A stretch of 64,000 nt of DNA from contig JAKONR010000544.1 of the NCBI GenBank assembly GCA_022701825.1, positions 1,825 to 65,824 of the forward strand, written 5' to 3'. Below, piece by piece: positions 9,777 to 43,218 of this stretch (within the stretch, counting starts at the first letter, position 1; every line of letters begins with the position of its first letter). The stretch comes from Hymenobacteraceae bacterium. Lineage in GTDB: Bacteria > Bacteroidota > Bacteroidia > Cytophagales > Hymenobacteraceae. The notes beneath the pieces were generated by a model, which did not search any database, was not told the origin of the DNA, and saw only the letters and a list, made by a program, of their open reading frames with translations. The translations under genes were made by a program, and so were the position numbers.

Positions 9777-9908
9777 GGAGGCCGGCAAATAAGTCCACAA
9801 AACTCGCGATTGCTTGGCTTACTTTTGAAAATGGAACGGGCAGAGTTGCATTACCCCCTTGCTTTTTGCCCTCTGCCTCCCCTGCAGGAACTACCATCCT
9901 TACCCATC

Positions 9909-14370: not shown

Positions 14371-14439
14371 TTTGCTTTAACACAGGCAACAGTACTAGCA
14401 AAAAGACTTATCTTCGAACTCCATAAAACACCTTCTTCC

Positions 14440-15258: not shown

Positions 15259-15310
15259 GAAATTACTTATATTTAATGCGTCTATTTATTTGCCATAACT
15301 CTACTCTTTT

Positions 15311-17215: not shown

Positions 17216-17281
17216 AGTCTGACGGCAACGCGTTTTCCGATCGAATTGAGTCCTTTGTTTATTGGCTATTTCTAAGCAGCA

Positions 17282-18829: not shown

Positions 18830-18838
18830 CCCGTACTC

Positions 18839-21800
18839 ATGGAAATGTCTACCGTTGAAAGCACACTGCTCGTGGATACGGAATTAACTGCGGCCACGCT
18901 CATTGGGCAGGTGGCCAGCCACTACCTGCGCAACCGCATCAAAGGCAATGAAGCGGAGTCCGGCACGGCTCGCTTTATACTCGATCAACTGCGCGGGGAG
19001 CAGATGGCGGCCATTGCCCGCGCTATTTTGGATGATGATTTCTTAGCCCAGCGGGTGCAAATTCAACTTCCCGCCTCCAAGTTAGCTCCCTATGTCGCTG
19101 AATATGCGCTACCGGAAGACATCCTGACCACGCTGCGGGCAACTTATTTACGCAATGCTGAATGCCTGCTGCCAGCCTTGTTGCTCGCCAACACCGGAGA
19201 CGACGAAGCGCAGTCGCTTAATTTGATCGAGCCCATTGGCTCCGCCGTGCTGCTGTCCCAACCCGATCTATGGGTGGAGGCCGCCAGTGAGGGATTAAAC
19301 TTGCCGGCCGAACAATTGGAGATTTGGGAGCGCATCCTACGGGCCCTAATGGACTTAAGCATCCGCTCCCTGCCTCACGTGGCGGAGTACGTGCTGCGCA
19401 CGCGCCGGGAAATCCTTGACGGCTCCGCCCTGTTCTTTGCCCTGGGTGCAGCCCTGCCCGCCCTGGCCATGCCCCGGGACACGAGCTTGTTTGCCAACGT
19501 TCCGGAAAAATATTACGGCCAGCAGAGCCGGTGGAAAGGCTTGTTTCAGGATGCCTATAAAAAGCGGGCGCCTTATTTGCGCAAGCAAACGCCTGCCCAG
19601 ACCCTGCTCACCGGGGCCAACCTGCGGGCGGCCTACTCACGGGTCAAGGACGCCATCATTCCCAGCTATCACCCCGCAATTGAGGCGTTCATCGCGTCCG
19701 ATGGCCAATGGAACGCATCTGCTAAAGCACTAGCGGAGTGTGAGTGGGAAGAGATTAAGCCTTTATTTGACGGCCTGCGCCGAGAGCGCCTCAACTTGGG
19801 TACCCTCACGCGCAACTTTTACAACGACCGGGATCCTGACTTGCTCTCGTCCGACGAACGCGAGTATCTTAAATCGTTGATCCAGCGCAACCCTTCGTCG
19901 GCTAACGACGACGACCGCACCTTCTACGAGCAGCACCGCCACCAAATCGTCGAGGAGCGCACCTTGAAAGCTGCGTGGGACAAGTTCGCTTTTGGCCGGC
20001 CCCAGGAATGCGAAGACTTCCTGGCCGGGGTTGCCCTCTGCTTGGAGCGACTCAGCGTGGAGGACTACAGCACCAACCGGCGGCTCAAAATTCGCTGCGA
20101 CGCCAAAACGCCGCTCCTGCTGCGCAAGCTCAACTCCGATGCATGGCAATACTTTGCCGCCCGCTACTACGGCCTCAAGCAACTCTTCGGCGCCCAAGTG
20201 GAGTGGGAAGTAGGCGAGCTATTCAACTACGCCAAGTTGATGAAGGAATGGGATGGCCGCTACAGCCGCAACCGCTCCGAAGCCCGCGCAGCCTTGCAAC
20301 TTAAATTCACTATTGAGTTGCAGATGGACTCCGTAGTGGATGGCCAAGCCAGTGGCTCCACGAACTCCCTAACGCAACTTATTTGGAACTTTACCCCCAA
20401 CAAAGCCACTCGAGAATTTGCCCCGGACTGGGACCGCTTGGTAGCCTACACCATGGGCACTTCGCCGGTAGCACCCATGGTGTTGTGCACGGCGGGCCGC
20501 GAGGCCATCAGCGCCAAGGGCCGCTTTCAGTCGGTAAACCTGAGCGACGTGCGGACCCTGACGCCGGCCTTTGGCCAAAATCGCGGCTCTTTTGTTGGCC
20601 CCAACAAAGCCGGCAACAACTTAGCCAAAAAGTGGGAGGCCAATTTAAAAATCGCCCGCATCGACAACATGATTTCGCCGGCGGTGGAGCAAGAATTAAC
20701 CGCGGCCTGGCAAGCCTTTAAGCAACTATACACCCAGGCCATCACGGGCTTCAAAGCAGAGGGACTTGCCTGCCCGGCCTTGCTTGAGCAGGGGCAAGCG
20801 TACGCCCGATTGCTGAACTTGATTTCGGAAAAGGCCCTGGGCGATCGTAACCGGGAGTTGTTGCTGCTGCCCTTGCTTCGGATCGGCTCCGTGACCATTT
20901 CGGGCGATTCCTCCACGGAAATCATCACGCCCTGGCACCCCTTGCGCATGATTGCCATGGCGGTAAAGGCCCGACGCATCCACGAGCTGATTAAGTCTTA
21001 CATCAACGAGCCCGAAGTACGTTTCGGGGACGCGGGGCGGATGTTTTTCAAGGACCTGCGTGATGAACTAGACCACGCTTTCTATCCGGAAGTCGTGCTG
21101 GGGCGCTACGAAAGCAAGCCCCAGCTGCTGGCCCTAACCGATACTTGCGGGGATTATACGCTGCACGAGTCCCCCGTGGCCAATGGCATCGAGACCAGCG
21201 ACAACCCCACGGAGTCGTCCAAGCGGGTAGCTGAGCTTGTGGCCCGCTACCTGTCCTTGCAACCTCACGAGAGTGCCAACTTATCGGTGGTACTTTACAA
21301 CTGCGACTCAGCGCGCCTGCCGCAAGCCGTGGTGGACCGCATTGGGGCCATGCACGAGGAGGAGGAAGACGTCCGCTGCCAAATTGTGCTTCGCCACCAC
21401 GATTCCAGCAAGCTGCACCCGCTCTACGAACGCATCGTCGAGGCCTCCGACTCCGACCCCGATGCCTACAGTGCGAGCGAAGCCACCCGCGACTTCATGG
21501 CTCGCTTGCGCATTGGTATTTCGGCCGATCAAGCCCCCACGCCCAACGAGAAAGATGGCCCCCCCAACGACATCGTCTTTTTGCAAGACGTCATCGCGCG
21601 CCACGCCACGGTGGAATGGTACAAGGAAAACGCCCAGGTTGTGCCCTTGATGGACCTAATTCCCGCGCAGTGGTCGCGCCGCCGCCCCTCCCCAGCCGGG
21701 AACATGAAATCTGTGGTTTACTTGTGTTGCCCGGCCCAAAGCACTGAAGGTTGGGCCTACTTGACGGCCATCACCACCTTGGTTAAAGGCGACTGGGATG

Positions 21801-24175
21801 GCGACACCACGCAGCGCTTGTTGCCTGCCCGACAACTGGACTTCCAGGATCCCAATATGCGAGAGATCTTCGACCAAACCCACAACTTGGGCAACTGGGT
21901 GGTCAACTACGACGAACTGCTGGACCGCCGCCAGCTGATGGACCGCAAAGTGCGGGTCATTCGCTACAAGCAGTCTTCCACCCAGGGTCGTAACTTAATC
22001 GTTTCCTCCACAGCTTCCCTGGGCTTATTGCACTCCATGGTGCAGCGGCGCATCGGCAGCCTGCAGTTGGATTTGGACGCCGGGGCACAGAAGCAGCTCA
22101 CCGATCGGTTCATTGAAGAGGCCAATAGCATTTCCGGGGACATTGTCCTGCGGGCGGCGCGGCGCGGGCGCAACGCCAGTGAACTCATGGGCGTGGTGCT
22201 GAGCGCGTACCTGATTCAGCACGAAATGCGCGTCTTCAACGGCGGGGTCCCGGGTCAATACGGCTGGTACTTCCTCGACGATTATGCCGAGTGGTTGGGG
22301 CAGCGCGAAGAGCAAATGGCCGACATTCTCATGCTCACCCCCAGCGTTGGGCCCGAAGGCGAACTGCGCCTAAGCATCGTGGTGAGTGAAGCCAAATTCA
22401 TCGATCGCGGCTCCTTGCATGCCAGCGCCAGCAAGTCGCGTAATCAGTTGCGCGACACCCTCAAGCGCATTAACGACGCCCTTTTCGGCACTCCGGAGCG
22501 CCTGGACCGGGCCTTGTGGCTGGCGCGCCTGTCGGACCTGATCCTCGACGGGGTGCAGTTCACCGCCGGCTCCAACATCAACCTGGCCGATTGGCGCATG
22601 GCCATCCGCAAGGGCGAGTGTTACATTAGCCTGCGGGGGTATTCTCACGTGTTCGTGTCCGGTCCGGAAGACGACCCGCTGGATGCCGACTTCGTGCATG
22701 TAGCCGAAGTCAACGAGGCCTACCAGGAAGTATTCAGTTGGAACCAGGTGCGGTCCATGGTGTCGACGTATGCCGCAAAAGGAAATCCGCAGCCCGTACG
22801 CCTGGAAAAGGGGAACCCACAGGTGTGGAAATCGCAAACGTTCACCAAAGCCGCGGGCTGCATTCAGCCGGGCAAGCCCGGCCAGCTGGTGGTTGCCACC
22901 CCCGATAAAAAAGCTTCCGCTCCAAAAGGGGGCACCCCGCACGTGGCTCCGGTCCTTCCAGTGGAGCCGCCGACAGACAAGCACGTCAATCCTATCGCCT
23001 CCATAGATGCCTCTGTCTCGCCATGGGCTTATCCCAGCATTCAACAGCTGGTGCCGGCCAACATGGGAGAGCAAACCGTGAGCCCGGCCGAAGTGGAGTG
23101 GCTTGGTGTTGTCGCGCAGCGCACGAAAGCGGCCCTGCAGGGCTTCAATCTGAACGCGCGTTTGTTGACCCAAAAGTTGACGCCCAATGCCGCGCTTCTC
23201 ACTTTCCAAGGCAGCGCCAACCTAACCGTCGACCAGGTCCTGAAAAGGCAAGTGGAGTTCAAGACCACTTACGGGTTGAGCGTGGTCTCCGTGCGGCCGG
23301 AAGCGGGTGCCATCTCCTTGGCCATTGAACGGCCCAACCGCCAAGTGGTGCGCCTGGAAGATATCTGGGGCCGCTGGACGCCCAACTCCGTCAAAGGCAA
23401 CCAAACCCTGCCCATTGCCATCCGGGAAGACAATGGCGAATTGCTGTTCCTTTCCCCCCAAAAGAATGCCCCTCACACCTTGATTGCCGGTTCCACGGGC
23501 AGTGGCAAGTCGGTGCTGGTGCAAAACATTATCTTGAGCATCGCCGCCACCAACACCCCGGCGCAGGCGCAGTTGATCATCATCGACCCCAAGCAGGGGG
23601 TAGACTACTTCGCCTTGGAGCCCCTGCCGCACGTCAAAGGCGGGGCCATTATTGTGGATCAGGAAGCGGCCTTGGAGGAGCTCACGCTACTGGTCGAAGA
23701 AATGGAGGCCCGCTACCGGCGCTTCCGGGAAACCCGCGTACCCAACCTCACCACGTACAATGCCCGCGTAGCCCCCACGGAACAACTGCCCGTGATCTGG
23801 TTGGTGCACGACGAATTCGCGGATTGGATGCAAATCGACGAATATAAGCAGGCCGTCACTGCCATCGTGGCGCGCCTGGGGGTCAAGGCCCGCGCCGCCG
23901 GCATCTACTTGGTGTTCGCCGCCCAGCGGCCCGACGCCAACGTGATGCCCATGCAGCTGCGCGCCAACTTGGGCAACCGCTTGATTTTGCGCGTGGACTC
24001 GGAAGGCACCTCCGAAATTGCGTTGGGCCTGAAGGGCGCGGAGCGTCTACTAGGAAAAGGGCACCTGCTGGCAAAGCTGGAAGGCGAACCCGATTTGCTC
24101 TTCGGCCAAGTGCCATTCATTCAAGACGAAGTCATCGAAGAGTTGGTCAACTTGATGGGGGTAGCCCCAGTGTAA
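18839..24175 (+). CDS. sspH: SspH/DptH-like protein with C-terminal FtsK/SpoIIIE ATPase
   Basis: 1778 aa; PHTLIAGSTGSGKS, IIDPKQG, VHDEFAD and KARAAGIYLVFAAQRP; possible PD-(D/E)xK segment (ADIL...SEAKF). Confidence 0.78.
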   Translation: MEMSTVESTLLVDTELTAATLIGQVASHYLRNRIKGNEAESGTARFILDQLRGEQMAAIARAILDDDFLAQRVQIQLPASKLAPYVAEYALPEDILTTLRATYLRNAECLLPALLLANTGDDEAQSLNLIEPIGSAVLLSQPDLWVEAASEGLNLPAEQLEIWERILRALMDLSIRSLPHVAEYVLRTRREILDGSALFFALGAALPALAMPRDTSLFANVPEKYYGQQSRWKGLFQDAYKKRAPYLRKQTPAQTLLTGANLRAAYSRVKDAIIPSYHPAIEAFIASDGQWNASAKALAECEWEEIKPLFDGLRRERLNLGTLTRNFYNDRDPDLLSSDEREYLKSLIQRNPSSANDDDRTFYEQHRHQIVEERTLKAAWDKFAFGRPQECEDFLAGVALCLERLSVEDYSTNRRLKIRCDAKTPLLLRKLNSDAWQYFAARYYGLKQLFGAQVEWEVGELFNYAKLMKEWDGRYSRNRSEARAALQLKFTIELQMDSVVDGQASGSTNSLTQLIWNFTPNKATREFAPDWDRLVAYTMGTSPVAPMVLCTAGREAISAKGRFQSVNLSDVRTLTPAFGQNRGSFVGPNKAGNNLAKKWEANLKIARIDNMISPAVEQELTAAWQAFKQLYTQAITGFKAEGLACPALLEQGQAYARLLNLISEKALGDRNRELLLLPLLRIGSVTISGDSSTEIITPWHPLRMIAMAVKARRIHELIKSYINEPEVRFGDAGRMFFKDLRDELDHAFYPEVVLGRYESKPQLLALTDTCGDYTLHESPVANGIETSDNPTESSKRVAELVARYLSLQPHESANLSVVLYNCDSARLPQAVVDRIGAMHEEEEDVRCQIVLRHHDSSKLHPLYERIVEASDSDPDAYSASEATRDFMARLRIGISADQAPTPNEKDGPPNDIVFLQDVIARHATVEWYKENAQVVPLMDLIPAQWSRRRPSPAGNMKSVVYLCCPAQSTEGWAYLTAITTLVKGDWDGDTTQRLLPARQLDFQDPNMREIFDQTHNLGNWVVNYDELLDRRQLMDRKVRVIRYKQSSTQGRNLIVSSTASLGLLHSMVQRRIGSLQLDLDAGAQKQLTDRFIEEANSISGDIVLRAARRGRNASELMGVVLSAYLIQHEMRVFNGGVPGQYGWYFLDDYAEWLGQREEQMADILMLTPSVGPEGELRLSIVVSEAKFIDRGSLHASASKSRNQLRDTLKRINDALFGTPERLDRALWLARLSDLILDGVQFTAGSNINLADWRMAIRKGECYISLRGYSHVFVSGPEDDPLDADFVHVAEVNEAYQEVFSWNQVRSMVSTYAAKGNPQPVRLEKGNPQVWKSQTFTKAAGCIQPGKPGQLVVATPDKKASAPKGGTPHVAPVLPVEPPTDKHVNPIASIDASVSPWAYPSIQQLVPANMGEQTVSPAEVEWLGVVAQRTKAALQGFNLNARLLTQKLTPNAALLTFQGSANLTVDQVLKRQVEFKTTYGLSVVSVRPEAGAISLAIERPNRQVVRLEDIWGRWTPNSVKGNQTLPIAIREDNGELLFLSPQKNAPHTLIAGSTGSGKSVLVQNIILSIAATNTPAQAQLIIIDPKQGVDYFALEPLPHVKGGAIIVDQEAALEELTLLVEEMEARYRRFRETRVPNLTTYNARVAPTEQLPVIWLVHDEFADWMQIDEYKQAVTAIVARLGVKARAAGIYLVFAAQRPDANVMPMQLRANLGNRLILRVDSEGTSEIALGLKGAERLLGKGHLLAKLEGEPDLLFGQVPFIQDEVIEELVNLMGVAPV

Positions 24176-26012: not shown

Positions 26013-26714
26013 CTACCCCCTATTCATCCGCCGCAGTTCCTCGGGAGATAATGGTGGATTTTGCCGATGCAACATCGCGTGGCAGTTAGGACAGACAGGG
26101 ACTAAGTCCGTTAACGGGTCAAGTGTATATGGACCCTCTGCCGCAGAAATGGAAACGGGCGTAAGGTGATGCACATGAATAAACCTGTGCCCGATGCTAC
26201 CATAAACCTGCTCGAAGTTGATGGTGCAAACCTTACAAGTATAGCCGAGAGAAGCTAAGCACGCCGCCCGTGCATAAGGATTCCGCTCATAACGTGTCTG
26301 CGTAACCTGCCGTGCGCCCTCCTCAACAAATGCAGGCACCTCCTCCACAAACCGGGGAACGTAGCCCGGTTGTGTAAGAAACTTAAACCAAGCCTCTTCC
26401 AGCTCCTGCACTATCTGAACATTAGACAACGGAATTCCAGAGGACATAGGAGTCCAATTCTGCTCGCCTAGCCGGCCTCCCCGCAGTTGGTCAACTAATA
26501 AGATCTCTTCGCTGTCCGAATTTAACAGCACATCTAATTCAAGTGTGACCTTTTGAACTTACTTGTTTTTGCCATCCCAGTGGGGTGCTGCGAACGGTTC
26601 TGATATGACTCTGCCTGAGACCGTAATTCCTCTTGGCACAGAACCCAGTCTAACAAGGAAAACTCTATCTCCAGGCCTAATCATGCGGTAGCTAGTACAG
26701 CTCCAATCGACGCC
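26013..26714 (-). pseudogene. Degraded PUA/EVE-like + HNH (McrA-like) modification-dependent nuclease
   Basis: Same frame upstream of the 172-aa ORF reads WSCTSYRMIRPGDRVFLVRLGSVPRGITVSGRVISEPFAAPHWDGKNK, then an in-frame TAA at 26559-26561; C-terminus YERNPYAR...CKVC...IHVHH...DLVPVCPNCHAMLH; N-terminus missing. Confidence 0.8.
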
Positions 26715-26908
26715 TTTATAAGCGAATACATAACGAGAAGAATCGAGTTGCTTTAGCTAGTAAACTTACCTTTTATGCGTGGCTACCCTGTGATTCTCGC
26801 GAAGAAAATTTGCAACAACCACTTCACCTTTGAGAGATAACCTCAATCATTTACTGGCAACCTGAATAGAGAAGCGAATAGAATTGTACATCCTTTCCCT
26901 CCCAGCCA

Positions 26909-27546
26909 ATGTCCGACATTGCCCTACTAGTTTTAGAGAACCCTTGGGACGAGCCGGTGGGCGGTACTCGTCGGCTGACAGTACTACCATTCTTTGAAGG
27001 CCTGGAGCGGATACACGCGAATCTGTAGGTTTACTACTCGTCATTCCATAACCTAACGGGTATTCGCGCAGCGCTAGACCTTGACCTACAGCTTACGAAG
27101 GAGCCCCGACAGATACTCTACATCGGTTCTCATGGCCAGGGGAAGATGCTCGCCAATATCCGACTAGCTGACTTACGCCGTAGCATTCGAGCTAGAGCCG
27201 GTCGTATAGAGGGGGTCATAATCAGCTCTTGTGATGTTTGTAGTGACTCCCATGAGTTGACAAAGCTGGTGGCGGGAACTACCATCCAGTGGGCTATTGG
27301 CTACCGATGCGCTGTGTCGTGGTTCGACAGCATGGTCATAGAGTTGGCCTTTTGAATAGCCTGGCTGCGCAGCCCACCACCTATAAAAGCTCTTGGGCAT
27401 CGCTGGAGGGCTTTTTTGCAACAGCCCTCCAACTACTGAATACTCAGCATACGCTGGATCCCGTGAAAGGCACCCTAAGCGAAAACCTAACCATTGTGCT
27501 GAACTCTCGGCCAAATGCCACCCCACGAATTTTCCAGCTTAGCTAA
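26909..27546 (+). pseudogene. Caspase/CHAT-fold (DUF6642-like) protein, disrupted
   Basis: From ATG 26909: MSDIALLVLENPWD...FFEGLERIHANL*VYYSSF...ILYIGSHG...IISSC...WAIGYRCAVSWFDS; in-frame TAG at 27026-27028 and a frameshift near 27350. Confidence 0.62.
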
Positions 27547-27655
27547 GTAAGAGAAGAAATGCCCTTTTCGAATTTTTTATATCCTTTTCACTTGGGCTAT
27601 TACTCCTATATACCTTACTTTAGCGTGCTCTATTCCTGGCTAACCAATACTGTGC

Positions 27656-28831
27656 ATGAGTTTAATCAAAATCCTTGCTGCGGGCACAACATGCAAGCCA
27701 GTATCGTTTCAAAACAGCGCATTTTCCAGCATAGCCAAGGAAATTAGCATCTTAGATGTGCTTGAATCAATAAGAGACGGCTTATACTCTAAGCAGATTA
27801 GCTATCTAAGAGATTTATTAAGTACCGCACAACTTGACGAGTACAGTAAGCAGAAGAGAAACCTACCTGCCGTTACATTTTGTGGAACATTCGAAGGCCA
27901 AAGAAAAAAACAATACCTAAAGATTTATAATTCATTACTTGTCATTGATATTGACAAACTCAATAATGTCGAGTTAATAAGAGCAAGACAAATACTCAAG
28001 GCAGACTCATTTGTCTTTGCTTATTGGACCTCACCATCAAATAACGGATTAAAAGGGCTTATTGCACTACCTTACGAACAAATAGAAGAAGTTAATACCT
28101 TCCATAAAAGAGCATTTGAGCAAGTCTCAGAATATTTTTTAGAAAAATATTCTATAGCTCTAGATGAAAGTGGCAGTGATACTACCCGTCTCTGTTTTTT
28201 ATCTTCCGACCCATTACTTGAGCTAAAGGATTCTATAGAGGTATTCCCTGTTACCAAACCAAGCGAGTTTGAGACCAAAATACTAAAACAAACCAATATA
28301 AGCGGCTCTATAAAAACACATCATATCACAAGCTCTTTAAGAAATAAGCTATACAATCCATTAGGAAGAAACAACCCAAGGCACAGAAATAGAATCTATT
28401 TAGTTACAAAATTTTTACGAAAAAGAAACCTATCCATAACCAAATCTAATGAGAACTGGATTAAGGTAGCGTATGCGATTGCAAATTCCTTTACTTATGA
28501 GATAGGAGAAAAATACTTTTTAGCTTTATCTAAATTAGACCCAGATAAATTCAACGAAACTAATTGTAAAAACACATTAATTTACTGTTATAAAAACAGT
28601 GACAAAAAGATAAGCTTCAATACAATCGTCTATTTAGCTAAACAAGAAGGCTATTTAGCTTCAAGAATAAGAAGAGGGGGTAGTACTGAAGGTGGAGCTC
28701 CCAAAGAGCCTCGCAAGTTTCAGCGCCCGAGAACGGTTTTGCCGCCTGGCGCTATAAAGGCTAAGACTTTTGTCCGTATCTTAAAAAAACTCCCGGAACT
28801 ACTCTCTCTTCTCTATGAAAACGCTTCATGA
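27656..28831 (+). CDS. BT4734/VirE-N-like archaeo-eukaryotic primase-polymerase with PriCT-2 domain
   Basis: KRNLPAVTFCGTF, LVIDID (DxD), WTSPSNNGLK, LDESGSDTTRLCFLSSDP; PriCT-2-like NWIKVAYAIAN...ISFNTIVYLAKQEGY; no VirE helicase attached. Confidence 0.82.
   Translation: MSLIKILAAGTTCKPVSFQNSAFSSIAKEISILDVLESIRDGLYSKQISYLRDLLSTAQLDEYSKQKRNLPAVTFCGTFEGQRKKQYLKIYNSLLVIDIDKLNNVELIRARQILKADSFVFAYWTSPSNNGLKGLIALPYEQIEEVNTFHKRAFEQVSEYFLEKYSIALDESGSDTTRLCFLSSDPLLELKDSIEVFPVTKPSEFETKILKQTNISGSIKTHHITSSLRNKLYNPLGRNNPRHRNRIYLVTKFLRKRNLSITKSNENWIKVAYAIANSFTYEIGEKYFLALSKLDPDKFNETNCKNTLIYCYKNSDKKISFNTIVYLAKQEGYLASRIRRGGSTEGGAPKEPRKFQRPRTVLPPGAIKAKTFVRILKKLPELLSLLYENAS
28670..28812 (+). ncRNA. Putative RT-associated structured ncRNA nested in the primase 3' end
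   Basis: 15-bp closing stem 28670-28684 with 28798-28812 (13 Watson-Crick + 2 G-U) enclosing three hairpin regions; GC-richer than the AT-rich flanks; ends 2 nt before the RT ATG. Confidence 0.62.
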
Positions 28832-30701
28832 TTATTTCTCTGGCGAGCGCATAATTTTATATCTATGCAAAGTACGAGCTAAGCAGGCTCACGCTCGCAA
28901 TAAAAAACACGGTATTCATATTCTCACTGGACATGACGCACACAATTACCATATCAATGACTCAAACACTACTTCCGAGTTTGATAAGAAGCTACTAAGT
29001 GAAATAAACCAATTGATGCCCAAGAGAAGGCAATGGATACGGTTAAAGAAAGAAGATAGATACAAGAAAAATAACAAGAATGCACATAAGCAAAAACTAT
29101 CCTCGTTAGAAATAACTACAAAGACCATATTTTTAACTATAAAGTATTTTAGAAAGCGAAATCCGAATGAGTTATTCTTAATAAACCTTGATAACTTTGT
29201 AAACGAAATTCAAAACACAGTTTCAGACCCTAGCTACACTATTACTCCGCCCAAGATATATCCAAAGCCAAAAAATCTCAAATCTGCAAGCAGTCTTAAA
29301 CCCGGAGAGAATAATGTATGCAGACCTATTACACTGTTCCATCTGAAGGACAGAATAATAATATGCTTCGTAAACAAGTTTCTCACTTGCGTTTTTGATA
29401 AGTATTTCGAGAGTTACTCCTTAGCGTTTCGCGCAGCGCAGGATAGCAATGGCGTCAAAAAGATTCTATCCCATCACGATGCTATTGAATCTATACTCAC
29501 ATATAAATCCGCACATGCTACCAACCCACTGTGGGTAGCAGAGTGTGACATGAAAAAGTTTTACGATTCCGTAAATCACATTGTTGCACTAAATAGCTTC
29601 GATAGACTAGCAGGCTTAGCAACGATTGATACCCCCAGCTTGGACTTAAGGGTAGCCAGGCAAATCTTCATTAAATATCTTGATTGCTACTGCTTTAAAA
29701 CTAACGTATTGTGCCACAATACGAACGAAGCCTATTGGGTGGAGCACAGAATAGCATCTGGTGCTTTTGACTGGATAGAAGCTGAGCTCACAAAACTCAA
29801 CTACTACAATCATGGGTTCAGCCCTTCCTTATCCTGGAGAACATTAATATGTCTAATCAAATACCTTCTGTCCTGTCTTAAAAAAAGGCCTGTTTTCGAG
29901 CAGGCAAGAATCGGAGTGCCACAAGGAGGAGCCCTATCAGGCTTAATTGCGAATATGGTACTAGATGAGGTAGACAAGAAGCTGAATATAAGTGATGATT
30001 TTCTTTACATTAGATTCTGTGATGACATGGTAATAATGCATCCTAACCAAAAGGAATGCAAAAAAAAGATAAATACTTATCAATCACTCTTAAAAACGTT
30101 AAAACTTGTTCCTCATAAGTTTGAAAGTATCAAAAAGCTAAGAAAATCGGATGGCTCTCTAGCGCCTTTTTGGGAAAAGAAATCTAAAGGACCTTATAAG
30201 TGGGACGAAGCTCGCAACCATGGCTTTCCGTGGATCGGATTTGTAGGCTACGAGGTTCATTGTAGTGGAAAGGAAATAAGAATTAGGAAAAGCTCACTAA
30301 AAAAGGAAATTCAGAAACAAAAAAGAATTGTTGAGCATATAAAGGAATCTATAGAAAAGGGACAGAGAGTAACAAATGGAGAAGTAGCAAAATCAGTGAT
30401 TCTGCGCCTTATTGGCATGTCCGTAGGCAGAGTAGAACTATGGAATCACAAGCACGTTGTTAATGAAATGTGCTGGCAGGTGGGTTTTCGCATGCTGCGT
30501 AACACAAGGCATGCGATACACCAGATTAAAAGGCTTGACAAAAGTCGCAGTAAATTATACTATGATTTGCTACACCACTTAAGAAAAAAAGGCAAAATGT
30601 CAACCAAGCCTAAGGTTAGAAAAAACGCCCAAAAAATTATATCCTACAACCGACCATTCAGCTACTTTCATCAAGTGATTTCGAGAAAGACAGAATCCTA
30701 A
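28815..30701 (+). CDS. Reverse transcriptase, UG/Abi (DRT)-like, FCDD catalytic motif
   Basis: CRPITLFHLKDRI, SLAFR, ECDMKKFYDSVNH, GVPQGGALSGLIAN, YIRFCDDMVI and FVGY motifs; no recognisable maturase/HNH, Cas1 or retron VTG motif. Confidence 0.9.
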   Translation: MKTLHDYFSGERIILYLCKVRAKQAHARNKKHGIHILTGHDAHNYHINDSNTTSEFDKKLLSEINQLMPKRRQWIRLKKEDRYKKNNKNAHKQKLSSLEITTKTIFLTIKYFRKRNPNELFLINLDNFVNEIQNTVSDPSYTITPPKIYPKPKNLKSASSLKPGENNVCRPITLFHLKDRIIICFVNKFLTCVFDKYFESYSLAFRAAQDSNGVKKILSHHDAIESILTYKSAHATNPLWVAECDMKKFYDSVNHIVALNSFDRLAGLATIDTPSLDLRVARQIFIKYLDCYCFKTNVLCHNTNEAYWVEHRIASGAFDWIEAELTKLNYYNHGFSPSLSWRTLICLIKYLLSCLKKRPVFEQARIGVPQGGALSGLIANMVLDEVDKKLNISDDFLYIRFCDDMVIMHPNQKECKKKINTYQSLLKTLKLVPHKFESIKKLRKSDGSLAPFWEKKSKGPYKWDEARNHGFPWIGFVGYEVHCSGKEIRIRKSSLKKEIQKQKRIVEHIKESIEKGQRVTNGEVAKSVILRLIGMSVGRVELWNHKHVVNEMCWQVGFRMLRNTRHAIHQIKRLDKSRSKLYYDLLHHLRKKGKMSTKPKVRKNAQKIISYNRPFSYFHQVISRKTES

Positions 30702-30804
30702 TCTTGTGGCGCCCCGCCCTAAAAATCATTTCCAGATTATATTCATACACACTTTATAACCTTGGGGCTAGCACCAAGGCTTTATACATCCTGCTTATAC
30801 ACAC

Positions 30805-33800
30805 ATGCCCCAACTACAAGCAGGCTATGCCGTCGAGGAAGTACTTCACTTTCTATCCACACCGCAGCTTCAACAAGCAATACCCGCTGCCCAAGTACGG
30901 GAAATGCTACATCACTTGTCGTGGTTTGAGGTAGAGTCCACGGTAGCTTTCGACCAGCGAGGCATTGAGCATGATAACGAGGCGCTCTGGTCGGTCGCCG
31001 CCAATCTAGTCAGCAGAGGCCTCCCGACGAGGGCACCGCTCTCCTTAACCAAGGATTTACTAGCTAAGTACTGGCCTCAAGGCGCGGAGCAGGACAATAC
31101 CGCCTTCGAACAAGGAGTATATAAGTTCAAGCTGGCCGAATCTGCTAAACCAGAGCTTTGGGCTAAGTGGTTGTGGCGAGCGCTCCACCCTATTGACCCG
31201 CGGCTGCACCCCACTGCCACGATGCTCAGTGACCTGCAGAGCTGGGAGTCGCATGGCAGTACTTTCGAGCGCCGGTTCTTGACACAGATTATTCCCGCGC
31301 TGGATGGGGCTTATCTGATGCAGCTACTCCAGCCGCAGGTAGCACTGCGCAACTTGCTCGAATGGGCCCCCGACGAAGCGGAGCAATTACACAAGCTGCT
31401 GCAAACAAATCCCGAGGATTTCACTGACCAATCAGTTGATTTCACGCTACCCCTTCCTTACCCATGGCTTCGTAGCAACCTAGCAACCCACGGATTTGTC
31501 CTGGAAGTCGACGGCAGTCAGCATTGGGAAGATGAAACACAGCGCCGGAAGGATGCAGCGCGGGATAAGGCAACGCGCGAGGCAGGCTGGGTACCGCTTC
31601 GCTTACGCACCACCGACTTTTCGCAGCCTGAAAAAGCCCTGCATACGTTACACGAGGCAACTAAGCAGCACGACTATTTTCAACTACTACGCGCGAACTA
31701 TGAGCGCTCCTTACTGGCTACGGGACAGGGACGAGCAGCTTTAGGGCTAACACTAGGCCCGCTAGCGGTAGGCCGCCTGCATCGCACGCTACTGGAGTGT
31801 ATGCTAAATGGGCTACTGCCAGCCCACAAGACTATATGGCGGATTGCCATTATCGAACGGGACATTCCCTGCGCTAGCTGGGCCGTAGCGTGCCTTGCGG
31901 AGCAGATGGAGCAGCTCTACTGCCTGCAGGGCCTAGGGCGACATTTGCCCGACATCGTACTACACATCGTCCCAGCGCCAGAGTTCGAGCCGGTGGAGGT
32001 TGAATCTAGCCAATTCTGCTTTACCAGCGGCGTTGAAGTTCAGGTGCTGGAAACACCTACTTCCCTTAAGGATGACTATGACGTTCTGCTGGATATATCC
32101 ATGCTGCAACGACCTGGCTTTAGCCAGGCGCCCCCGCTACACCGCACGCCCTGTCTAACGCTTCGCACAGCGCACGCGCCCCAGCAAGCTCGCTCGTTTC
32201 ATACGGCTCCGCTTATCCCTTATCCTGCTCTAGTAGAGCGAGACGGCAGCAGTGAGTCGGCCTTCCACGTGGCCGACGAGCAGCGCCCCCGCGTGGCGGC
32301 TCTGGAATATTTTGTGCAAAATATCTTTCGCAAAAAAGGCCTACGAGCAGGTCAACTACCCATAATTAGCCGAGGCCTGCAGGGCAAAAGCGTTTTGGGC
32401 CTGCTACCAACCGGCGGTGGCAAGTCTCTTACTTATCAAGTAGCCGCATTGCTTCAACCCGGTATCGCGCTAGTAGTTGATCCCATTAAGTCTCTCATGC
32501 TTGACCAGTATGATGGCTTGCACGATAACTGGATCGACGCCGCTTCTTATGTGAATGGGTCCGTACGCTCACGTGTGCAGCGCGAATTACGGCTTGCTCG
32601 CCTACGCCGGGGAGAAGTGCTGTTTTTCTTCATTTCGCCTGAGCGCATGGTTATTCCTGACTTTCGTCAGAAACTTCAAGCTATGTACTTGGCAGAGCCT
32701 AGGGTGGGGTTTAGCTACTGTGTCATTGACGAGGCGCACTGCGTATCGGAATGGGGCCATGACTTCCGAACACCCTATCTACGCCTTGGCATCAATGCGC
32801 GCACCTATTGCCGGACCTATGATGGTAGTCCCTTGCCGCTTTACGGCCTAACAGCAACTGCCTCTTTCGATGTACTAGCCGACGTGCAACGGGAGTTGAA
32901 CCTAGAAAATGAGGATGAGGCGATTGTGCGTACGGAAGTTTCTGCCCGGCAAGAGTTACATGTCCGCATCTTACCCATCCAGGTCAACGACCCGCTTGCA
33001 TTTGATGCAGCTGGCCCAGCCAAACAAAAAGCGCTACTTGATTTACTGTCTACTATACCCCAGGACCTACGCCGCTGGAATGGTCAATCCGCTATAAGTC
33101 TAGACGAGGACACCGCCTTAACTGTGAGGCGTATCCCCAACCTAGAAGATGCTACCTTTTTCCTTCCTAACGAAAGGGGGAAGTACGAGCACGCAGGCCT
33201 CATCTTCTGCCCTCATAAGAGTCCCAAAATTTCGTCTGGCGTACGCCGTGTGGTTTACGCATTAAATGAACCTGGCCAAGACCTGCCTCATTTAAAAATA
33301 GGCTACTTTATGGGAGCTAGTGCCGACGACGGGGATGCTTCTGAGCAGACCCAACAGCGAGAGCTTGTTTCCATGGATGGAATGCAAACGCAGTTCAAGG
33401 CCAATGAATTGAACCTGCTCGTAGCTACCAAAGCCTTCGGTATGGGCATCGACAAACCGAATGTGCGCTTTACGGTGCACTACTGTTACCCAGGCTCCAT
33501 CGAAAGCTTCGTGCAGGAGGCTGGGCGGGCTGGGCGCGACCGGGCTACGGCAGTCAACTATGTACTTTACTACAAAGAGGACGTCGAGATTCAGCAAAAC
33601 TTCCTAGCCAATGCTTTTAAGGGCAGTCATAAGGAGGGGTGCATCATGCATGAGCTACTAACGCTCATCACCTTTCCCACTTCCGAGCAGTGCGAAGAGC
33701 TAAATCATGAGTTAGAGATTGCCTTTCCCGAAATTCCTGTAACAGCCTCGCTTTACGCGCTCCCAGGTCAATCTACCCCACGTTACCTGTACCTCAACCA

Positions 33801-35196
33801 AGCGCACAGCTGTAGCTATGGTCGCATTGATTTAGCTAATCCACAGGCAATAAAGGGGGATACTGACAAAAAGCACCCTGACATCTCCTTTACGCAGGCG
33901 CAGCAGGTAGTTAATTGGACTATCAACTACTTATTAACTGAGCTGCCTACGCTGGCTCGCACTAGTCAGGCAACGCTAGCTAAACACTTAAGCGGACGTA
34001 GCGCCGCAGCTAATACGCCGGGCATTATTCCCCGCTTAGAAGAAGTAGGTTTTGGCACGAGCCCTGAACCGCTGACCATTGGCTTTGCAAATGGAATGCT
34101 ACGTGAAATCAGCGAAACTGCGCATACTTTCTCGCTTGATTTACCCATCCCGTTACTTCGCAAGGCGTCAGCTTATGCAAATACACCCGAAAAATTCTTA
34201 AGCAACCTTCAAAAGGCTTACAAGAAATCGACTAATCAGACGCTGCGCTTACCAGCAGCATTGCGCGACCTTATCAAGGAGCTGGTTCCTAGGATTCGTC
34301 AGGAAGAAGATACCGCTAAGGCAGTCCATCGCCTGTGCTTGCTAGGTGTCATTCGTGACTACACTATCGATTACGGCGCCCGCGCTATGACGCTCTACTT
34401 TGCCCCTAGGCAAAGTGAAGATGAAGTACTAAGTGCCTATCGCACCTACCTTCTGCGCTATACGACTCCTCCTAGGGTGGACGAACGTGTAGTAGCCGTA
34501 CGAGAAGCAGCGGCTGGCCATCATATTCTACCCGCCTGCCTCGATAACCTGCTGAACTTCACTTATACAGAAACTGCTGCTAAGCGCCAAGAGTCTATCA
34601 AGGCAATGGGCAACGCGTGTGAGATGGGTCTGAATGGGGAGAACCTAAGCGAATACTTTGACCTCTACTTCAATTCCAAATATGCCCGGGAGGAATACCT
34701 TCCTAAACACACACAGAAGGGCCGCTATTTTGACCAGGCAATCCTCTGGCGCTACCTTAATTACATTGGTAACCCTCCGGATAACTTAGGCAAGGAGAAG
34801 GATAATGCAAAGCACTTGCGTGGGGCCTGCAGCCGACTCCTCCAAGACCGTATCTACAGCGCGAATGGCGCCATTCTACTACTAAGCGGATTTACAACGC
34901 TCTTCCTTGAGTTAAGCAAGCCTAAAGACAAGCAAGCTGAACGGCTTTTGCACGAAGGCCGCACTAATCTTCTAGCGGGCTTTAACGCATTTCAAGCGCA
35001 AGATGCCTTAGAGCTACCGACACTTCTGGCGTTTGTTCAGCAGTTTGCCGCGGCTGCCGGCAGATATGATAACCGAGTAGCTGCCTTTATCAATACCCAT
35101 ATTACGTCCCAGTTAGAGCTTGAGATGCTCACTAGCTGGCTCCAAGCATTCAATCACAACTTTGACGACCGGCCAGCGCTGGCGGTCGTAGCTTAA
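30805..35196 (+). CDS. RecQ-family SF2 helicase with N-terminal DUF559/Vsr-like nuclease domain
   Basis: LEVDGSQHW...RKDAARD...GWVPLRL; LPTGGGKSLTYQ, DEAHCVSEWGHDFR, TATA, ATKAFGMGIDK and QEAGRAGRD. Confidence 0.87.
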   Translation: MPQLQAGYAVEEVLHFLSTPQLQQAIPAAQVREMLHHLSWFEVESTVAFDQRGIEHDNEALWSVAANLVSRGLPTRAPLSLTKDLLAKYWPQGAEQDNTAFEQGVYKFKLAESAKPELWAKWLWRALHPIDPRLHPTATMLSDLQSWESHGSTFERRFLTQIIPALDGAYLMQLLQPQVALRNLLEWAPDEAEQLHKLLQTNPEDFTDQSVDFTLPLPYPWLRSNLATHGFVLEVDGSQHWEDETQRRKDAARDKATREAGWVPLRLRTTDFSQPEKALHTLHEATKQHDYFQLLRANYERSLLATGQGRAALGLTLGPLAVGRLHRTLLECMLNGLLPAHKTIWRIAIIERDIPCASWAVACLAEQMEQLYCLQGLGRHLPDIVLHIVPAPEFEPVEVESSQFCFTSGVEVQVLETPTSLKDDYDVLLDISMLQRPGFSQAPPLHRTPCLTLRTAHAPQQARSFHTAPLIPYPALVERDGSSESAFHVADEQRPRVAALEYFVQNIFRKKGLRAGQLPIISRGLQGKSVLGLLPTGGGKSLTYQVAALLQPGIALVVDPIKSLMLDQYDGLHDNWIDAASYVNGSVRSRVQRELRLARLRRGEVLFFFISPERMVIPDFRQKLQAMYLAEPRVGFSYCVIDEAHCVSEWGHDFRTPYLRLGINARTYCRTYDGSPLPLYGLTATASFDVLADVQRELNLENEDEAIVRTEVSARQELHVRILPIQVNDPLAFDAAGPAKQKALLDLLSTIPQDLRRWNGQSAISLDEDTALTVRRIPNLEDATFFLPNERGKYEHAGLIFCPHKSPKISSGVRRVVYALNEPGQDLPHLKIGYFMGASADDGDASEQTQQRELVSMDGMQTQFKANELNLLVATKAFGMGIDKPNVRFTVHYCYPGSIESFVQEAGRAGRDRATAVNYVLYYKEDVEIQQNFLANAFKGSHKEGCIMHELLTLITFPTSEQCEELNHELEIAFPEIPVTASLYALPGQSTPRYLYLNQAHSCSYGRIDLANPQAIKGDTDKKHPDISFTQAQQVVNWTINYLLTELPTLARTSQATLAKHLSGRSAAANTPGIIPRLEEVGFGTSPEPLTIGFANGMLREISETAHTFSLDLPIPLLRKASAYANTPEKFLSNLQKAYKKSTNQTLRLPAALRDLIKELVPRIRQEEDTAKAVHRLCLLGVIRDYTIDYGARAMTLYFAPRQSEDEVLSAYRTYLLRYTTPPRVDERVVAVREAAAGHHILPACLDNLLNFTYTETAAKRQESIKAMGNACEMGLNGENLSEYFDLYFNSKYAREEYLPKHTQKGRYFDQAILWRYLNYIGNPPDNLGKEKDNAKHLRGACSRLLQDRIYSANGAILLLSGFTTLFLELSKPKDKQAERLLHEGRTNLLAGFNAFQAQDALELPTLLAFVQQFAAAAGRYDNRVAAFINTHITSQLELEMLTSWLQAFNHNFDDRPALAVVA

Positions 35197-35207
35197 GACT
35201 CTCTTCT

Positions 35208-36041
35208 ATGCTCTCCGCGCAGCCTTCCCTCGAAATTCTGAAGCAGGAATTATCCCGTCTCTCCACGTATACCAAAGAAATAGGCAAAGCCCAGGAAGTT
35301 GCTACTCAAGCTCAAGCAGCAGCGACTGCTGTCATCAAAGCTGCTGAGAACATCGGTCTAAAAAGCAGCCAGCTACTTGGCGACTTAAAGACGGAGCATC
35401 TGCGTGCTGTTTCTGAGCAGACTGTTATCCTAGAGAAAGCATCTCATCAGCAGGCTGCGGACGCACAAGACATCATTAGACAGGAGATAAGCGGCCTGCG
35501 CCAAGGCGCAGAGACTGCCGCAAAAGTGCTGCAGCAGGTACTGGAAGAACAACCACATATTCTGGCTACTATCACAGCACAATATAAGCAGGAAGGAAGC
35601 TCGCAAACGGACTTACTACGCCAACGAATTGGGGAATCCACAGCTTTCTTAACTGAGCAAGTAGCCTCTCAAATTGGGAAGCTCAATCAGGTAAAAAAGG
35701 ACTTCGACGTAGCGGTGCGTAAGCAGATAGATGTGCTCACCTCCATTACAGACCGGCTTCAAGTCATCTCTGGGAGCCTAACTGCTTTTCGGGATGCGAT
35801 GAATGCGGCCAGGTTTACGGATCACTTAGAAGAGTTAGATAGCAAGCAAGAAAAACTAGTAGTTCTCACTGCGCAGAATCATACAAGTCTCCTAAACCGG
35901 CTCGAAGTGCTTGAGAGTATCCAGCAGCACGGCGCAGAGATGAACACAACCTTGGCTGCGCTCAAGAGCCAAAACCTAATACTACAGGCTGTCATAGCAG
36001 TGGGTACTGTTGTGCTGCTTGCTCTTCACTTTATAAAATAA
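35208..36041 (+). CDS. Coiled-coil protein with a single C-terminal transmembrane anchor
   Basis: Helical Q/E/K/A-rich body; hydrophobic tail LILQAVIAVGTVVLLALHF; starts 11 bp after the RecQ-like gene. Confidence 0.7.
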   Translation: MLSAQPSLEILKQELSRLSTYTKEIGKAQEVATQAQAAATAVIKAAENIGLKSSQLLGDLKTEHLRAVSEQTVILEKASHQQAADAQDIIRQEISGLRQGAETAAKVLQQVLEEQPHILATITAQYKQEGSSQTDLLRQRIGESTAFLTEQVASQIGKLNQVKKDFDVAVRKQIDVLTSITDRLQVISGSLTAFRDAMNAARFTDHLEELDSKQEKLVVLTAQNHTSLLNRLEVLESIQQHGAEMNTTLAALKSQNLILQAVIAVGTVVLLALHFIK

Positions 36042-36196
36042 GCACCTCATCAAATCATGGGGAAAGAGATCAGCTTATTATCGGGCTGAAGTGTTCTAGG
36101 CTAGGCGCACAGAAGCAAAAGATATATTTTTCGAAACCTATTTTCAAAACACGTCTCAACTCTGTACAGCTTAGCTAGGCCACCTCAACCTACTAT

Positions 36197-37459
36197 CTAC
36201 AGCAAGGATTGCAACTTCATTAACTTGTAGACTGGCAGCAACTTCTCCCAGTCCTGCATCACCGTCGCTGGCAACGTAGTGAGCGAGACGCGTGGGTCAT
36301 TTGGCGCATACTGATGCCGAATAATGAAGTACTGTCCGCCCACCTCATCAGGCCGCACATAGGCTGCTAGTTCCTGTGCGTTTGCGAAGTCTATCACCTT
36401 CCGTGGGGTACCACCCCCCACCTGAATCCTGAACTCACTTCCTAGCTGCGTTAACACCTCAAAAAATTGCTCTCGGTAATCGGACCGCCGCATCTTCCGG
36501 TGAAAATCTTGCCGGTCCACTACTTGTTTGTCGCGGCCAATGCGGCACCAGGTTTCAACAGAGTGTTCGAATAAAATCACTTGTAACCGGATAAACTCCT
36601 TCGGTGTAGCTGCCTCATTAATCGCTTTTAGCTCGGACTTGCTACGTCCAAAGTTTAGCCAGATAGCCTTCAAATCGGGCTCCACTCCTACCCCGTGCAC
36701 TGCGGCAGACACTTGGTTTTCTACGCGGTAGTGTGGGTGCAGGTCCCACTTTTTTTGCTGCACTGATTTGGCCAGTTGGTCGTGTAATTTATAGAGGCGG
36801 TTGCGTACCACATTGCGCTCGCGGTTAGCTACCTCGTCTTGTGCTCGCCACCGGTCACTGGCAAATGCCCGAAAATGTTCCGTGGTAAAAAACTGTCCTG
36901 CTAAAGAAAGCGTGGACTTTTCCTGAGCAGCCACTTGCTTTAGTTCTGCTACAAGCTTCCGCACCGCCGGCTCCACGGCCCGACGCTCGGCAAATACCTT
37001 ACTATATTCCTCTACAAAGGTCGGGGTAAGCGCGAGGCCCTGTTCGTAGAGGGGAACCCACCACATAGCTAGCAGTTTTTTTACCTCATTCTCTTGTCTA
37101 ATCACGGCCGTCAACTCCACATTATTCTTAAGTCCACCAGCCGTGACATTAGCTGAGCCGATGAAGGCCACGTAGTGCTCAGCTTGCCGCACTACATACA
37201 CCTTAGGATGATACGTCGCCTCGCCCCCGTATAATCGTGCCGTCCTAGGAGCTTGCCACGTTAGCAAGCGCGTGAGGGCAGCCGGCGGGGTAGGCAAATC
37301 CACCCCAACTAGTAGCCTTACTGTGGCCGTGGGTGGGGTGTGCTGCTGCAAAAAATCTAGGCCCTGCTCATTGATCAAGGCTACGGCTATCCATACCTCT
37401 TCGGCGGCGGTTAGGGCAGCAGCTAACTCCTCTGCTAGTGTGGTTGTGAAAGCAGACAT
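36197..37459 (-). CDS. PLD-family (NgoFVII/BfiI-like) nuclease with C-terminal putative DNA-recognition domain
   Basis: YHPKVY...FIGSANVTAGGLKNNVE HKD-type motif. Confidence 0.8.
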   Translation of the reverse strand: MSAFTTTLAEELAAALTAAEEVWIAVALINEQGLDFLQQHTPPTATVRLLVGVDLPTPPAALTRLLTWQAPRTARLYGGEATYHPKVYVVRQAEHYVAFIGSANVTAGGLKNNVELTAVIRQENEVKKLLAMWWVPLYEQGLALTPTFVEEYSKVFAERRAVEPAVRKLVAELKQVAAQEKSTLSLAGQFFTTEHFRAFASDRWRAQDEVANRERNVVRNRLYKLHDQLAKSVQQKKWDLHPHYRVENQVSAAVHGVGVEPDLKAIWLNFGRSKSELKAINEAATPKEFIRLQVILFEHSVETWCRIGRDKQVVDRQDFHRKMRRSDYREQFFEVLTQLGSEFRIQVGGGTPRKVIDFANAQELAAYVRPDEVGGQYFIIRHQYAPNDPRVSLTTLPATVMQDWEKLLPVYKLMKLQSLL

Positions 37460-37639
37460 TTTGAGGTGCGCAGGTAAATCCAGACAGTTTAGGAGCCTAA
37501 TTGCGCTCTTAAAGATGCATGTTTCAGAACTAGTAACCGCTAATTATTAGCTTGCCGGATGGGAAAGCACATACTATCCTATTTCCAAATACTTGTTCTA
37601 CTCCTCCATATCTGACCTCCCAGCGCACTCCCCCACTTT

Positions 37640-41829: not shown

Positions 41830-41855
41830 AACTGTCTACTTGCCCTCACCCACCT

Positions 41856-42713: not shown

Positions 42714-42810
42714 TGTGGGCCGCACAACGGCAACTATAATTCCTTATTATTGCCGATGCGCCGTCGCCTGCATCAATCCGCTAGCGCGTGACAAAAGCTT
42801 CCCCTACAAT

Positions 42811-43218
42811 ATGCCCCCCCGCCACGAAGTAGTAGCCGCCATCATCCAGCACGAAAATCAATTCCTCTGCCTGCAACGCGGCCCCAGCAAATACGCCTAC
42901 ATCGCCCACAAATGGGAGTTCCCCGGCGGCAAAGTAGAAGCCGGCGAAACCCAGGAAGAGGCACTAATACGGGAAATTCAAGAGGAGCTAGCCCTAGGCA
43001 TTCAGATAAAGAATAATCTCCTAACAGTGCACCACGCCTACCCCGACTTCGATATCACGATGCACGGGCTCCTATGCACAACCTCCCCATACACACCCAC
43101 CCTGCACGAGCACGTGGCCTACGTCTGGCTCCCGCGCGAGCAGCTCCACACCCTGGACTGGGCCGCCGCCGACCTACCAATCGTCGCTCACCTACAAGAG
43201 AATGTCCCTGCTCGCTAG
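42811..43218 (+). CDS. NUDIX hydrolase (MutT/NudG-like)
   Basis: Nudix box WEFPGGKVEAGETQEEALIREIQEEL; LDWAAADLPIV. Confidence 0.9.
   Translation: MPPRHEVVAAIIQHENQFLCLQRGPSKYAYIAHKWEFPGGKVEAGETQEEALIREIQEELALGIQIKNNLLTVHHAYPDFDITMHGLLCTTSPYTPTLHEHVAYVWLPREQLHTLDWAAADLPIVAHLQENVPAR

Follow-up and report, generated by a model that had tools for sequence, protein, structure and literature searches.

The window analyzed here, a 64,000-nucleotide (nt) stretch of a Hymenobacteraceae bacterium (contig JAKONR010000544.1, positions 1,825 to 65,824 of the forward strand), carries at 27656-30701 a gene pair encoding a primase-polymerase (PrimPol) and a reverse transcriptase (RT), with a predicted non-coding RNA (ncRNA) at the junction of the two genes. 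The open reading frames (ORFs), ORF1 at 27656-28831 (391 amino acids, aa) and ORF2 at 28815-30701 (628 aa), are both located on the + strand in different frames and overlap by 17 base pairs (bp); the RT frame has a stop 10 codons ahead of its ATG. The G+C content (GC) is 36-39% over 28001-30000 versus 53-68% over 1-25000 and 49-57% over 31001-43000, and PADLOC and Pfam searches identified a defence island around the cassette, comprised of SspABCD, SspFGH, two GmrSD-type genes, two HNH genes and a type IV restriction endonuclease (REase) gene. A first-pass annotation of this DNA had described an AT-rich two-gene cassette inside a defence island, in which a BT4734/VirE-N plus PriCT-2 primase overlaps by 17 bp a 628-aa RT of the UG/Abi class with PQGG and FCDD motifs; composition, neighbouring genes, ORFs, domains and motif positions all agreed with this description. 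The following features were assigned, the parts of the RNA being placed by alignment columns:

27656..28831, + strand: BT4734-like/VirE-N primase-polymerase with PriCT-2, the UG39 partner (Mestre cluster 64)
27947..27955, + strand: primase motif I, D98-I-D100, aspartates invariant (80/80)
28669..28812, + strand: predicted ncRNA of ~144 nt, based on fold, covariation and covariance model
28670-28687 with 28795-28812: closing stem of the RNA, stem-loop (SL) 1
28688-28691: 4-nt linker; 28692-28714: SL2; 28715-28722: loop A (8 nt)
28723-28752: SL3; 28765-28774: short SL5-like hairpin; 28775-28794: loop B
28738..28764, + strand: predicted pseudoknot, SL3 apical loop 28738-28743 with 28759-28764
28776..28794, + strand: candidate template loop, with conserved G at 28776, a 2-nt linker, UCUUAAAAAAAC at 28779-28790 and UC at 28791-28792
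28815..30701, + strand: UG39 class 2 UG/Abi RT, 628 aa, with D245, PQGG at 369-372 and FCDD at 401-404
30660..30665, + strand: S616-Y617 within a C-terminal K/R-P-F-S-Y motif, candidate protein-priming residues

The RT was matched by the PADLOC model RT_UG39 over residues 4-624 (E 8e-178, 590.8 bits), with the next PADLOC family at E 7e-20 and Drt2 being the next best (69.5 bits) among the named DRT (defence-associated RT) and UG models; its membership of UG39 is virtually certain. RVT_1 was the sole Pfam domain at E<=0.01 and no further known domain is fused to it, as in class 2 RTs. Residues D245, D403 and D404 and the glutamine and glycines of PQGG are invariant in all 68 aligned RTs, as are S616 and Y617, which are positioned after a low-confidence linker of an AlphaFold2 model with a predicted local distance difference test score (pLDDT) of 89.2. 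By analogy, S616 and Y617 are candidates for the protein primer. A Foldseek search with this model returned DRT9 RTs as the top three matches (E 1e-12 to 6e-11), followed by group II intron RTs and DRT2. Interrupted RT or primase frames in L002:5001-6761, L023:5001-6775 and L016 represent decayed copies or assembly errors.

In the PrimPol, Pfam identified BT4734-like_N at residues 66-186 (E 2.7e-28) and PriCT_2 at residues 252-328 (E 4.4e-4, 21 bits, just below the Pfam cut-off of 22), and the PADLOC model RTasVirE-PriCT2 matched residues 15-334 (E 6.9e-116). All 80 aligned sequences have D98, D100, G131, K133, D170 and D175; these residues correspond to motifs I, II and III (DFD, GLK and VD) of AgaPP, which are required for activity (PMC11724360). 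The conserved body stops near residue 335, and the final ~50 codons traverse the RNA element; residues 350 and 360 fall in gaps in 70 of the 80 sequences, and pLDDT is <50 at 339-364. Foldseek gave no match for the primase model at E<=0.001, its weak top rows being mostly enzymes of the AEP family.

Relatives were drawn from 110 loci with a near-full-length RT: 26 from GTDB, 80 from metagenomes (the best 80 of 504), one from IMG/VR and three from a phylum sample. The primase adjoins the RT in 101 of them, 99 in tandem and two divergently (L020 and L161), and the other nine have <=325 nt of upstream DNA; retention of the primase by RT homologues, which the first-pass annotation had proposed as a check, was therefore borne out. 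A reciprocal search of 401 genomes of the phylum gave the same result: the four RT carriers were the four genomes with a primase match <1e-100, at adjacent coordinates, and two further weak primase matches lay in 700-750-aa frames. The RT is thus patchily distributed (4/401). Gaps between primase and RT in homologues measure 64-188 nt. No third conserved gene was observed among the 114 immediately flanking genes of 66 loci, the commonest family being AAA_15/21 ATPases (6/114); no SLATT family member was found there at E 1e-8, and no integrase partner was conserved. The earlier claim that the pair has no helicase partner holds for the family, because none of these 114 genes matched a helicase at E 1e-8; in the window, a DEAD/Helicase_C gene (30805-35196, Pfam) follows the RT. 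IMG/VR viral contigs gave no match to a single-protein query, and an alignment query retrieved one full-length copy among 50 loci, the others being distant RTs; on that contig (L108) the full cassette is located between brxL and an integrase gene. A plasmid search yielded one partial match among 72,556 records.

The predicted RNA element at the gene junction

The segment 28669-28812 folds with -50.5 kcal/mol (z -2.79), a value as good being reached by 1 of 200 shuffles, and relatives have a 120-210-nt element that ends just ahead of the RT start. Rfam gave no match at E<=1 over 27000-31500. Since the loci are often near-duplicates, the 105 with enough sequence (window included) were reduced to 74 representatives at 90% RNA identity, and 48 of these, picked for typical length, were aligned by MAFFT from sequence only. 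Across 25 named pairs in SL1, SL2 and SL3, 80.1% of cells were paired versus 63.3% after shuffling (0/500 reached the native value) and 42-55% in slid registers; this comparison favours SL1, as the segment ends were set with a stem search, and SL2 and most of SL3 were not so selected. Double changes were observed at 21 of the 25 pairs. SL2 was 83.8% paired, part of SL3 was off register in the sequence-only alignment (60%), and RNAalifold found SL1 unaided. A structured junction element, as first annotated, and its covariation upstream of the RT, which had been named as a further check, were thereby both upheld.

When a covariance model was run on the 26 held-out representatives, 18 were detected at E<=0.01 and three more weakly (E above 0.01). 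It found a single site in the whole genome of the window and no match in 13 loci of unrelated viral RTs. In L020, where the primase is on the opposite strand, the model located the RNA beside the RT. Taken together, these comparisons make it very probable that the structured RNA is functional. In L090, L093, L103 and L105, which form a long-branch RT clade, the RNA has the closing stem yet was missed by the model; it is likely a second RNA subtype.

Loops A and B begin alike. The segment predicted to pair with the SL3 apical loop lies ~7 nt past SL3 across the family. In a family-wide test of this pseudoknot on 40 representatives with <70% identity, the native score was 11.0 versus 7.95 for permuted pairings (standard deviation 0.42, maximum 9.85 of 5000), and in a fixed register 74% versus 52% of positions were paired in 22 members of the largest clade (five with indels left out); both tests are inflated by relatedness, yet the paired strands vary in sequence between loci. 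For the window copy, the assignment of the pseudoknot comes from homology only: it has three G-C pairs, a mismatch and two U-A pairs, and is not significant by itself. In L010, L011 and L019, a ~15-nt duplication is present inside SL3, and the pseudoknot partner is re-formed out of duplicated sequence.

Boxes were counted against the consensus of the -7-type promoter. An internal promoter ahead of the RNA was not supported, as evidenced by a perfect box <=65 nt from SL1 in only 7 of 74 representatives; boxes occurred upstream of the primase in 10/59 loci versus 5/59 inside the gene, and directly at the stem in the divergent L161 only. In both L020:3796-5001 and L161:3287-4456, where the primase is divergent from the RNA-RT unit, a box ends just before SL1, perfect in L161 and a near match in L020, which suggests, at the sequence level, that the RNA 5' end is the transcription start.

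In 65 of 71 representatives, the primase frame extends at least into the first stem arm before its stop, which lies mostly in the first half of the element and past the whole RNA in the window only. Full read-through of the last ~50 primase codons was seen only in the window and in L028, the relative closest to it. Overlap of stop and RNA is normal elsewhere, so that the tail is probably incidental.

Candidate template loop and repeat pattern

The candidate template occupies the position of DRT10 loop B, between SL5 and SL1. The columns C-A-G-U-A-U are 89-100% conserved in 66 aligned sequences; past GUAU, loop B is variable and has no conserved U tract, and in the window it includes an A7 run (28783-28789). 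That this loop serves the RT as a template is probable by analogy with DRT10; it is a likely template loop, and the exact product is uncertain.

Repeats were scored at the DRT10 boundary (the third base after the conserved G) as an A-B-A' arrangement with a 2-nt A-A' match and a period of 5-7, leaving out the unaligned L007 and L020. Such matches were present in 0.66 of 64 loops and 0.60 of 40 (24/40), versus 0.36-0.39 of swapped and 0.22-0.24 of shuffled loops. At boundaries 1, 2 and 5 bases past the conserved G the shuffles were not beaten, and 4 bases past it the result was marginal. Furthermore, A and A' change together in several clades, e.g., UU to UC, and UA in L046 is nested in a UC clade; these changes were read from a quick, within-family tree of 71 RTs (L002, L081 and L160 left out). 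The repeat pattern is suggestive only and, on sequence, appears atypical in the window copy, whose only option has a period of 12, around the A7 run. In the loop B region of L014, L015, L017, L060 and L047, genomic tandem duplications are present (two to three copies of a 6-7-nt unit around the conserved G), and could be due to replication slippage or a trace of repeat complementary DNA (cDNA).

Proposed mechanism and competing explanations

The reading that we favour is that, with the RNA as template, the RT makes protein-primed repeat DNA, to which the PrimPol adds the second strand. By analogy with DRT9 and DRT10, the RNA would be cut out of the operon transcript or, in L020 and L161 with their divergent primase, transcribed from a promoter of its own. 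The RT would bind this RNA and copy it into tandem-repeat single-stranded DNA, with SL1 and the SL5-like hairpin bounding loop B, and synthesis would begin on S616 or Y617 and end two bases past the conserved G. Resetting through A-B-A' would give 5-7-nt repeats in most relatives, e.g., from templates UCUUUG or UUAUGG; the window copy would produce a 12-nt T-rich repeat or, via slippage on the A7 run, poly-dT, which a U4-to-A4 mutant of DRT9 is reported to make (PMC12483538). Judging from the biochemistry of CAPP_B and AgaPP and from DRT7, the PrimPol would then prime and extend on the repeat strand to yield double-stranded DNA. The products of DRT9 (PMC12483538) and DRT3 (PMC13174585) are toxic once phage proteins block host nucleases, and a similar course is assumed here: host nucleases would keep the product scarce, and once a phage protein had blocked these nucleases, the product would accumulate and lead to abortive infection. 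For this model as a whole we estimate a probability of about 55%. Of its parts, an anti-phage role of the cassette appears, by analogy, fairly likely, and second-strand synthesis by the primase is favoured with somewhat less confidence.

Several observations weigh against the model. In the repeat test, merging of loops left 17 of 39 unique loops with a match (shuffled 8.7, swapped 11.4, p 0.012), and dissimilar loops gave 9/20 (shuffled 4.9, p 0.027; swapped 6.5, p 0.12); other boundary and period cells were equal or higher (12/20), and the 5-7 window was picked after looking. The clade to which the window belongs (window, L029, L034 and L043) is without the 5-7 pattern, and the 12-nt option of the window has a 10-nt B, a length that DRT10 tolerates only at a low level (bioRxiv 2025.10.16.682844). 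The covariance model missed five of the 26 held-out representatives (L090, L093, L103, L106 and L161), apart from the three scoring above E 0.01. The SL5-like hairpin is weak, its score being 8.8 versus 7.4 for shuffles, with 45/64 above their own shuffle mean, and the RNA of the window lies fully within a translated frame. A PADLOC match at E<=1e-10 in an immediately flanking gene was recorded for 28 of 66 loci (31 genes), which favours the model; two of these matches are generic, however, and the count was made without a background control. Mestre 2022 (PMC9226505) rated the predicted defence association of UG39 as inconclusive. No effector gene accompanies the pair, so that toxicity of the DNA itself has to be assumed. 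Lastly, UG27, which is also a class 2 RT, makes 50-100-nt hairpin cDNAs with no repeats (bioRxiv 2026.09.22.753630), and this keeps the rival explanations alive.

The rival that fares best, though still unlikely, is an RNA-templated module that is not anti-phage or that makes discrete short cDNA, with a role in mobile-element maintenance, DNA repair or anti-defence, as suggested for UG27 and AgaPP. The inconclusive defence association and the 38 of 66 loci with no PADLOC match in an adjacent gene accord with it, as do the hairpin cDNAs of UG27 and the role in element replication and repair that has been proposed for AgaPP (PMC11724360). However, the window copy has Ssp, GmrSD and type IV restriction genes as neighbours, and the patchy occurrence, the single full-length copy among the 50 IMG/VR loci and the lack of a conserved helicase or integrase partner are at odds with it.

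Slightly less plausible is a scheme in which the RNA is the RT template and the primase acts first, giving the RT a DNA or RNA primer. The first-pass annotation had offered both primer supply and second-strand synthesis as roles for the primase, and the latter stood up better than the former, because the RT has the invariant C-terminal Ser-Tyr, as in the protein-primed DRT9 and DRT10, and relatives of the primase prefer DNA templates: AgaPP (PMC11724360) and DbCAPP (PMC8211822) prime and extend on DNA and perform poorly on RNA, with AgaPP priming inefficiently there. The constant pairing of the two genes and the intact primase motifs and PriCT-2 would suit primer supply; likewise, DRT3a is apparently not protein-primed in that manner (PMC13174585), so priming varies within class 2.

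About equally improbable is a cis-regulatory or scaffold role of the RNA, coupling or attenuating RT expression, with the proteins working as a split DRT7, the RT making protein-templated or untemplated DNA for the primase to copy. In most loci, 0-25 nt separate the 3' arm of SL1 from the RT start, with a U-rich run often following the arm, the primase stop is inside the element in most loci, and loop B varies beyond GUAU, all of which would accord with such an RNA; moreover, DRT7 needs no RNA (bioRxiv 2026.04.18.719102). Against it, UG39 is class 2, whose characterized members use cis-encoded ncRNA templates, the nearest RT folds are those of DRT9 and DRT2, and the multi-branch layout matches DRT10 and persists with a divergent primase in L020.

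Least probable by far is a +1 slip on the A7 run that would fuse the primase and RT frames of this sub-lineage into a ~1000-aa protein mimicking the DRT7/UG10 fusion: in the window and L028 the primase frame does cross the whole RNA and the RT frame, at +1, opens at the A7 run (open-frame overlaps of 44 and 56 nt, respectively), but any such overlap was found in only 5 of 72 loci, the tail is absent from 70 of 80 primases, and the open frame may be incidental because the six codon differences between window and L028 (four synonymous, two not) also suit the RNA stems.

A narrower form of the favoured model is more tentative, and we would not back it at even odds: UG39 may be a bacterial telomerase-plus-fill-in machine, with the RT, seated on a pseudoknotted RNA, copying a short internal template into 5-7-nt repeats, whose complement the separate PrimPol would synthesize. 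Telomerase RNA also has a pseudoknot, and primase-polymerase alpha performs the fill-in at telomeres. If this were true, UG39 would be the first DRT in which an RNA-programmed repeat is combined with a dedicated enzyme for the second strand and no further effector takes part, and double-stranded repeat DNA of reprogrammable sequence would itself be the weapon.

Around the cassette, a complete SspABCD plus SspFGH phosphorothioate system of known kind (PADLOC) spans 8622-24175. Ahead of an HNH gene (26013-26756, - strand; Pfam), and in frame with it, is a stretch of 65 codons that a single stop separates from the gene; the two probably represent one gene interrupted by a premature stop. At 26882-27355 (+ strand), immediately ahead of the cassette, two abutting open stretches of 48 and 108 codons in one frame are split by a single stop and are probably a broken gene; the longer contains His-Gly and Ser-Cys motifs that we take to be reminiscent of caspase-like peptidases. 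Directly downstream of the RT, 30805-36041 holds a 1463-aa REase-like/DEAD helicase gene and then a 277-aa coiled-coil-like gene, which are not kept beside related RTs.

Comparison with known systems

The first-pass annotation had suspected that the pair might already be catalogued, and this is the case. UG39 was split from UG28 and formerly called UG28b; it belongs to class 2 of the UG/Abi RTs and is associated with cluster 64, VirE plus PriCT-2 (Mestre 2022, PMC9226505), and a VirE_N link of the UG39/UG28b RT was also described by Sharifi and Ye (PMC8934634). Both window proteins fit the published profiles over near full length and in the same two-gene pairing. The available text of Mestre 2022 gives ncRNAs for UG2, UG8, UG27 and UG28 and none for UG39. 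No experimental study of the UG39 system or its RNA was found in the literature searched, supplementary figures being largely outside that search, and the RNA is apparently unpublished. The present analysis adds to the pair an RNA, a predicted pseudoknot, a template candidate and a priming candidate; the window copy also has the read-through primase tail.

The RNA is most similar to that of DRT10 (UG17), a system of RT, ncRNA and SLATT that makes protein-primed tandem-repeat cDNA (bioRxiv 2025.10.16.682844; 2026.06.29.735271; 2026.04.29.721553), priming from a C-terminal serine or tyrosine (bioRxiv 2025.10.16.682844). The order SL1, 4-nt loop, SL2, loop A, SL3, SL5 and loop B is that of the Eco3 RNA (bioRxiv 2026.06.29.735271), a conserved G and a 2-nt linker likewise precede the template, the similar starts of loops A and B echo the Eco3 pseudo-symmetry, and a C-terminal Ser/Tyr is present in both; in many UG39 relatives, loop B is suggestive of the A-B-A' pattern. 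In contrast, the window RT matches RT_UG17 with E 7.8e-20 only and is ~170 aa longer, the partner of UG39 is a PrimPol and not SLATT, and its RNA is encoded between the two genes, where it overlaps the stop of the primase. A pseudoknot is predicted in the UG39 RNA, whereas the word "pseudoknot" does not occur in the searched text of two DRT10 papers; the RNA of DRT2 is reported to be pseudoknotted (PMC12039810). Filing under DRT10 was rejected, as the UG17 profile is far weaker and no SLATT is present in the 114 flanking genes.

DRT9 (UG28), in which an RT with an upstream ncRNA makes poly-dA primed from C-terminal tyrosines (PMC12483538), provides the nearest solved RT folds and also has a C-terminal tyrosine, the candidate primer in UG39. 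Identity is only 13-14%, however, and UG39 has no conserved poly-U template and always a second enzyme. The Drt9 profile (E 5.2e-18) and a loop B lacking a conserved U tract, with A7 in the window, excluded this filing.

DRT7 (UG10), a fused RT-primase-polymerase that is protein-templated and works without an ncRNA (bioRxiv 2026.04.18.719102), shares the coupling of an RT to an AEP primase-polymerase, which in DRT7 copies the RT product into duplex-like DNA. The window has two ORFs in different frames and a conserved RNA instead, and the UG10 profile reaches only E 1.2e-8; the separate ORFs, the in-frame stop before the RT ATG and the gaps in homologues argued against this filing. CAPP_B and AgaPP (PMC8211822; PMC11724360) belong to the same AEP family and have the DxD, GxK and D motifs; they partner Cas1-Cas2 or a helicase plus Argonaute, whereas the UG39 primase partners an RT and no helicase. 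No retron model was among the 25 best of 41 PADLOC families and there was no Rfam match, so a retron filing was also rejected. The closing stem resembles retron a1/a2 arms and nothing more.

Class 2 DRTs are being solved one by one, and each has brought new chemistry. A proper test of UG39 would require its RNA, which would be lost from clones cut at the gene borders or carrying a recoded primase tail. From the RNA model, mutants can be specified exactly in the stems, the pseudoknot, the template and the priming residues, and a repeat is predicted. If the proposed mechanism is true, UG39 would represent a third route to double-stranded repeat DNA, after the two RTs of DRT3 and the fusion of DRT7, and would bear on the proposed link between DRTs and telomerase and on an RNA-programmable writer of double-stranded DNA repeats. 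With a well-supported RNA added to a known gene pair, UG39 can be tested directly as a variant of the systems represented by DRT9 and DRT10.

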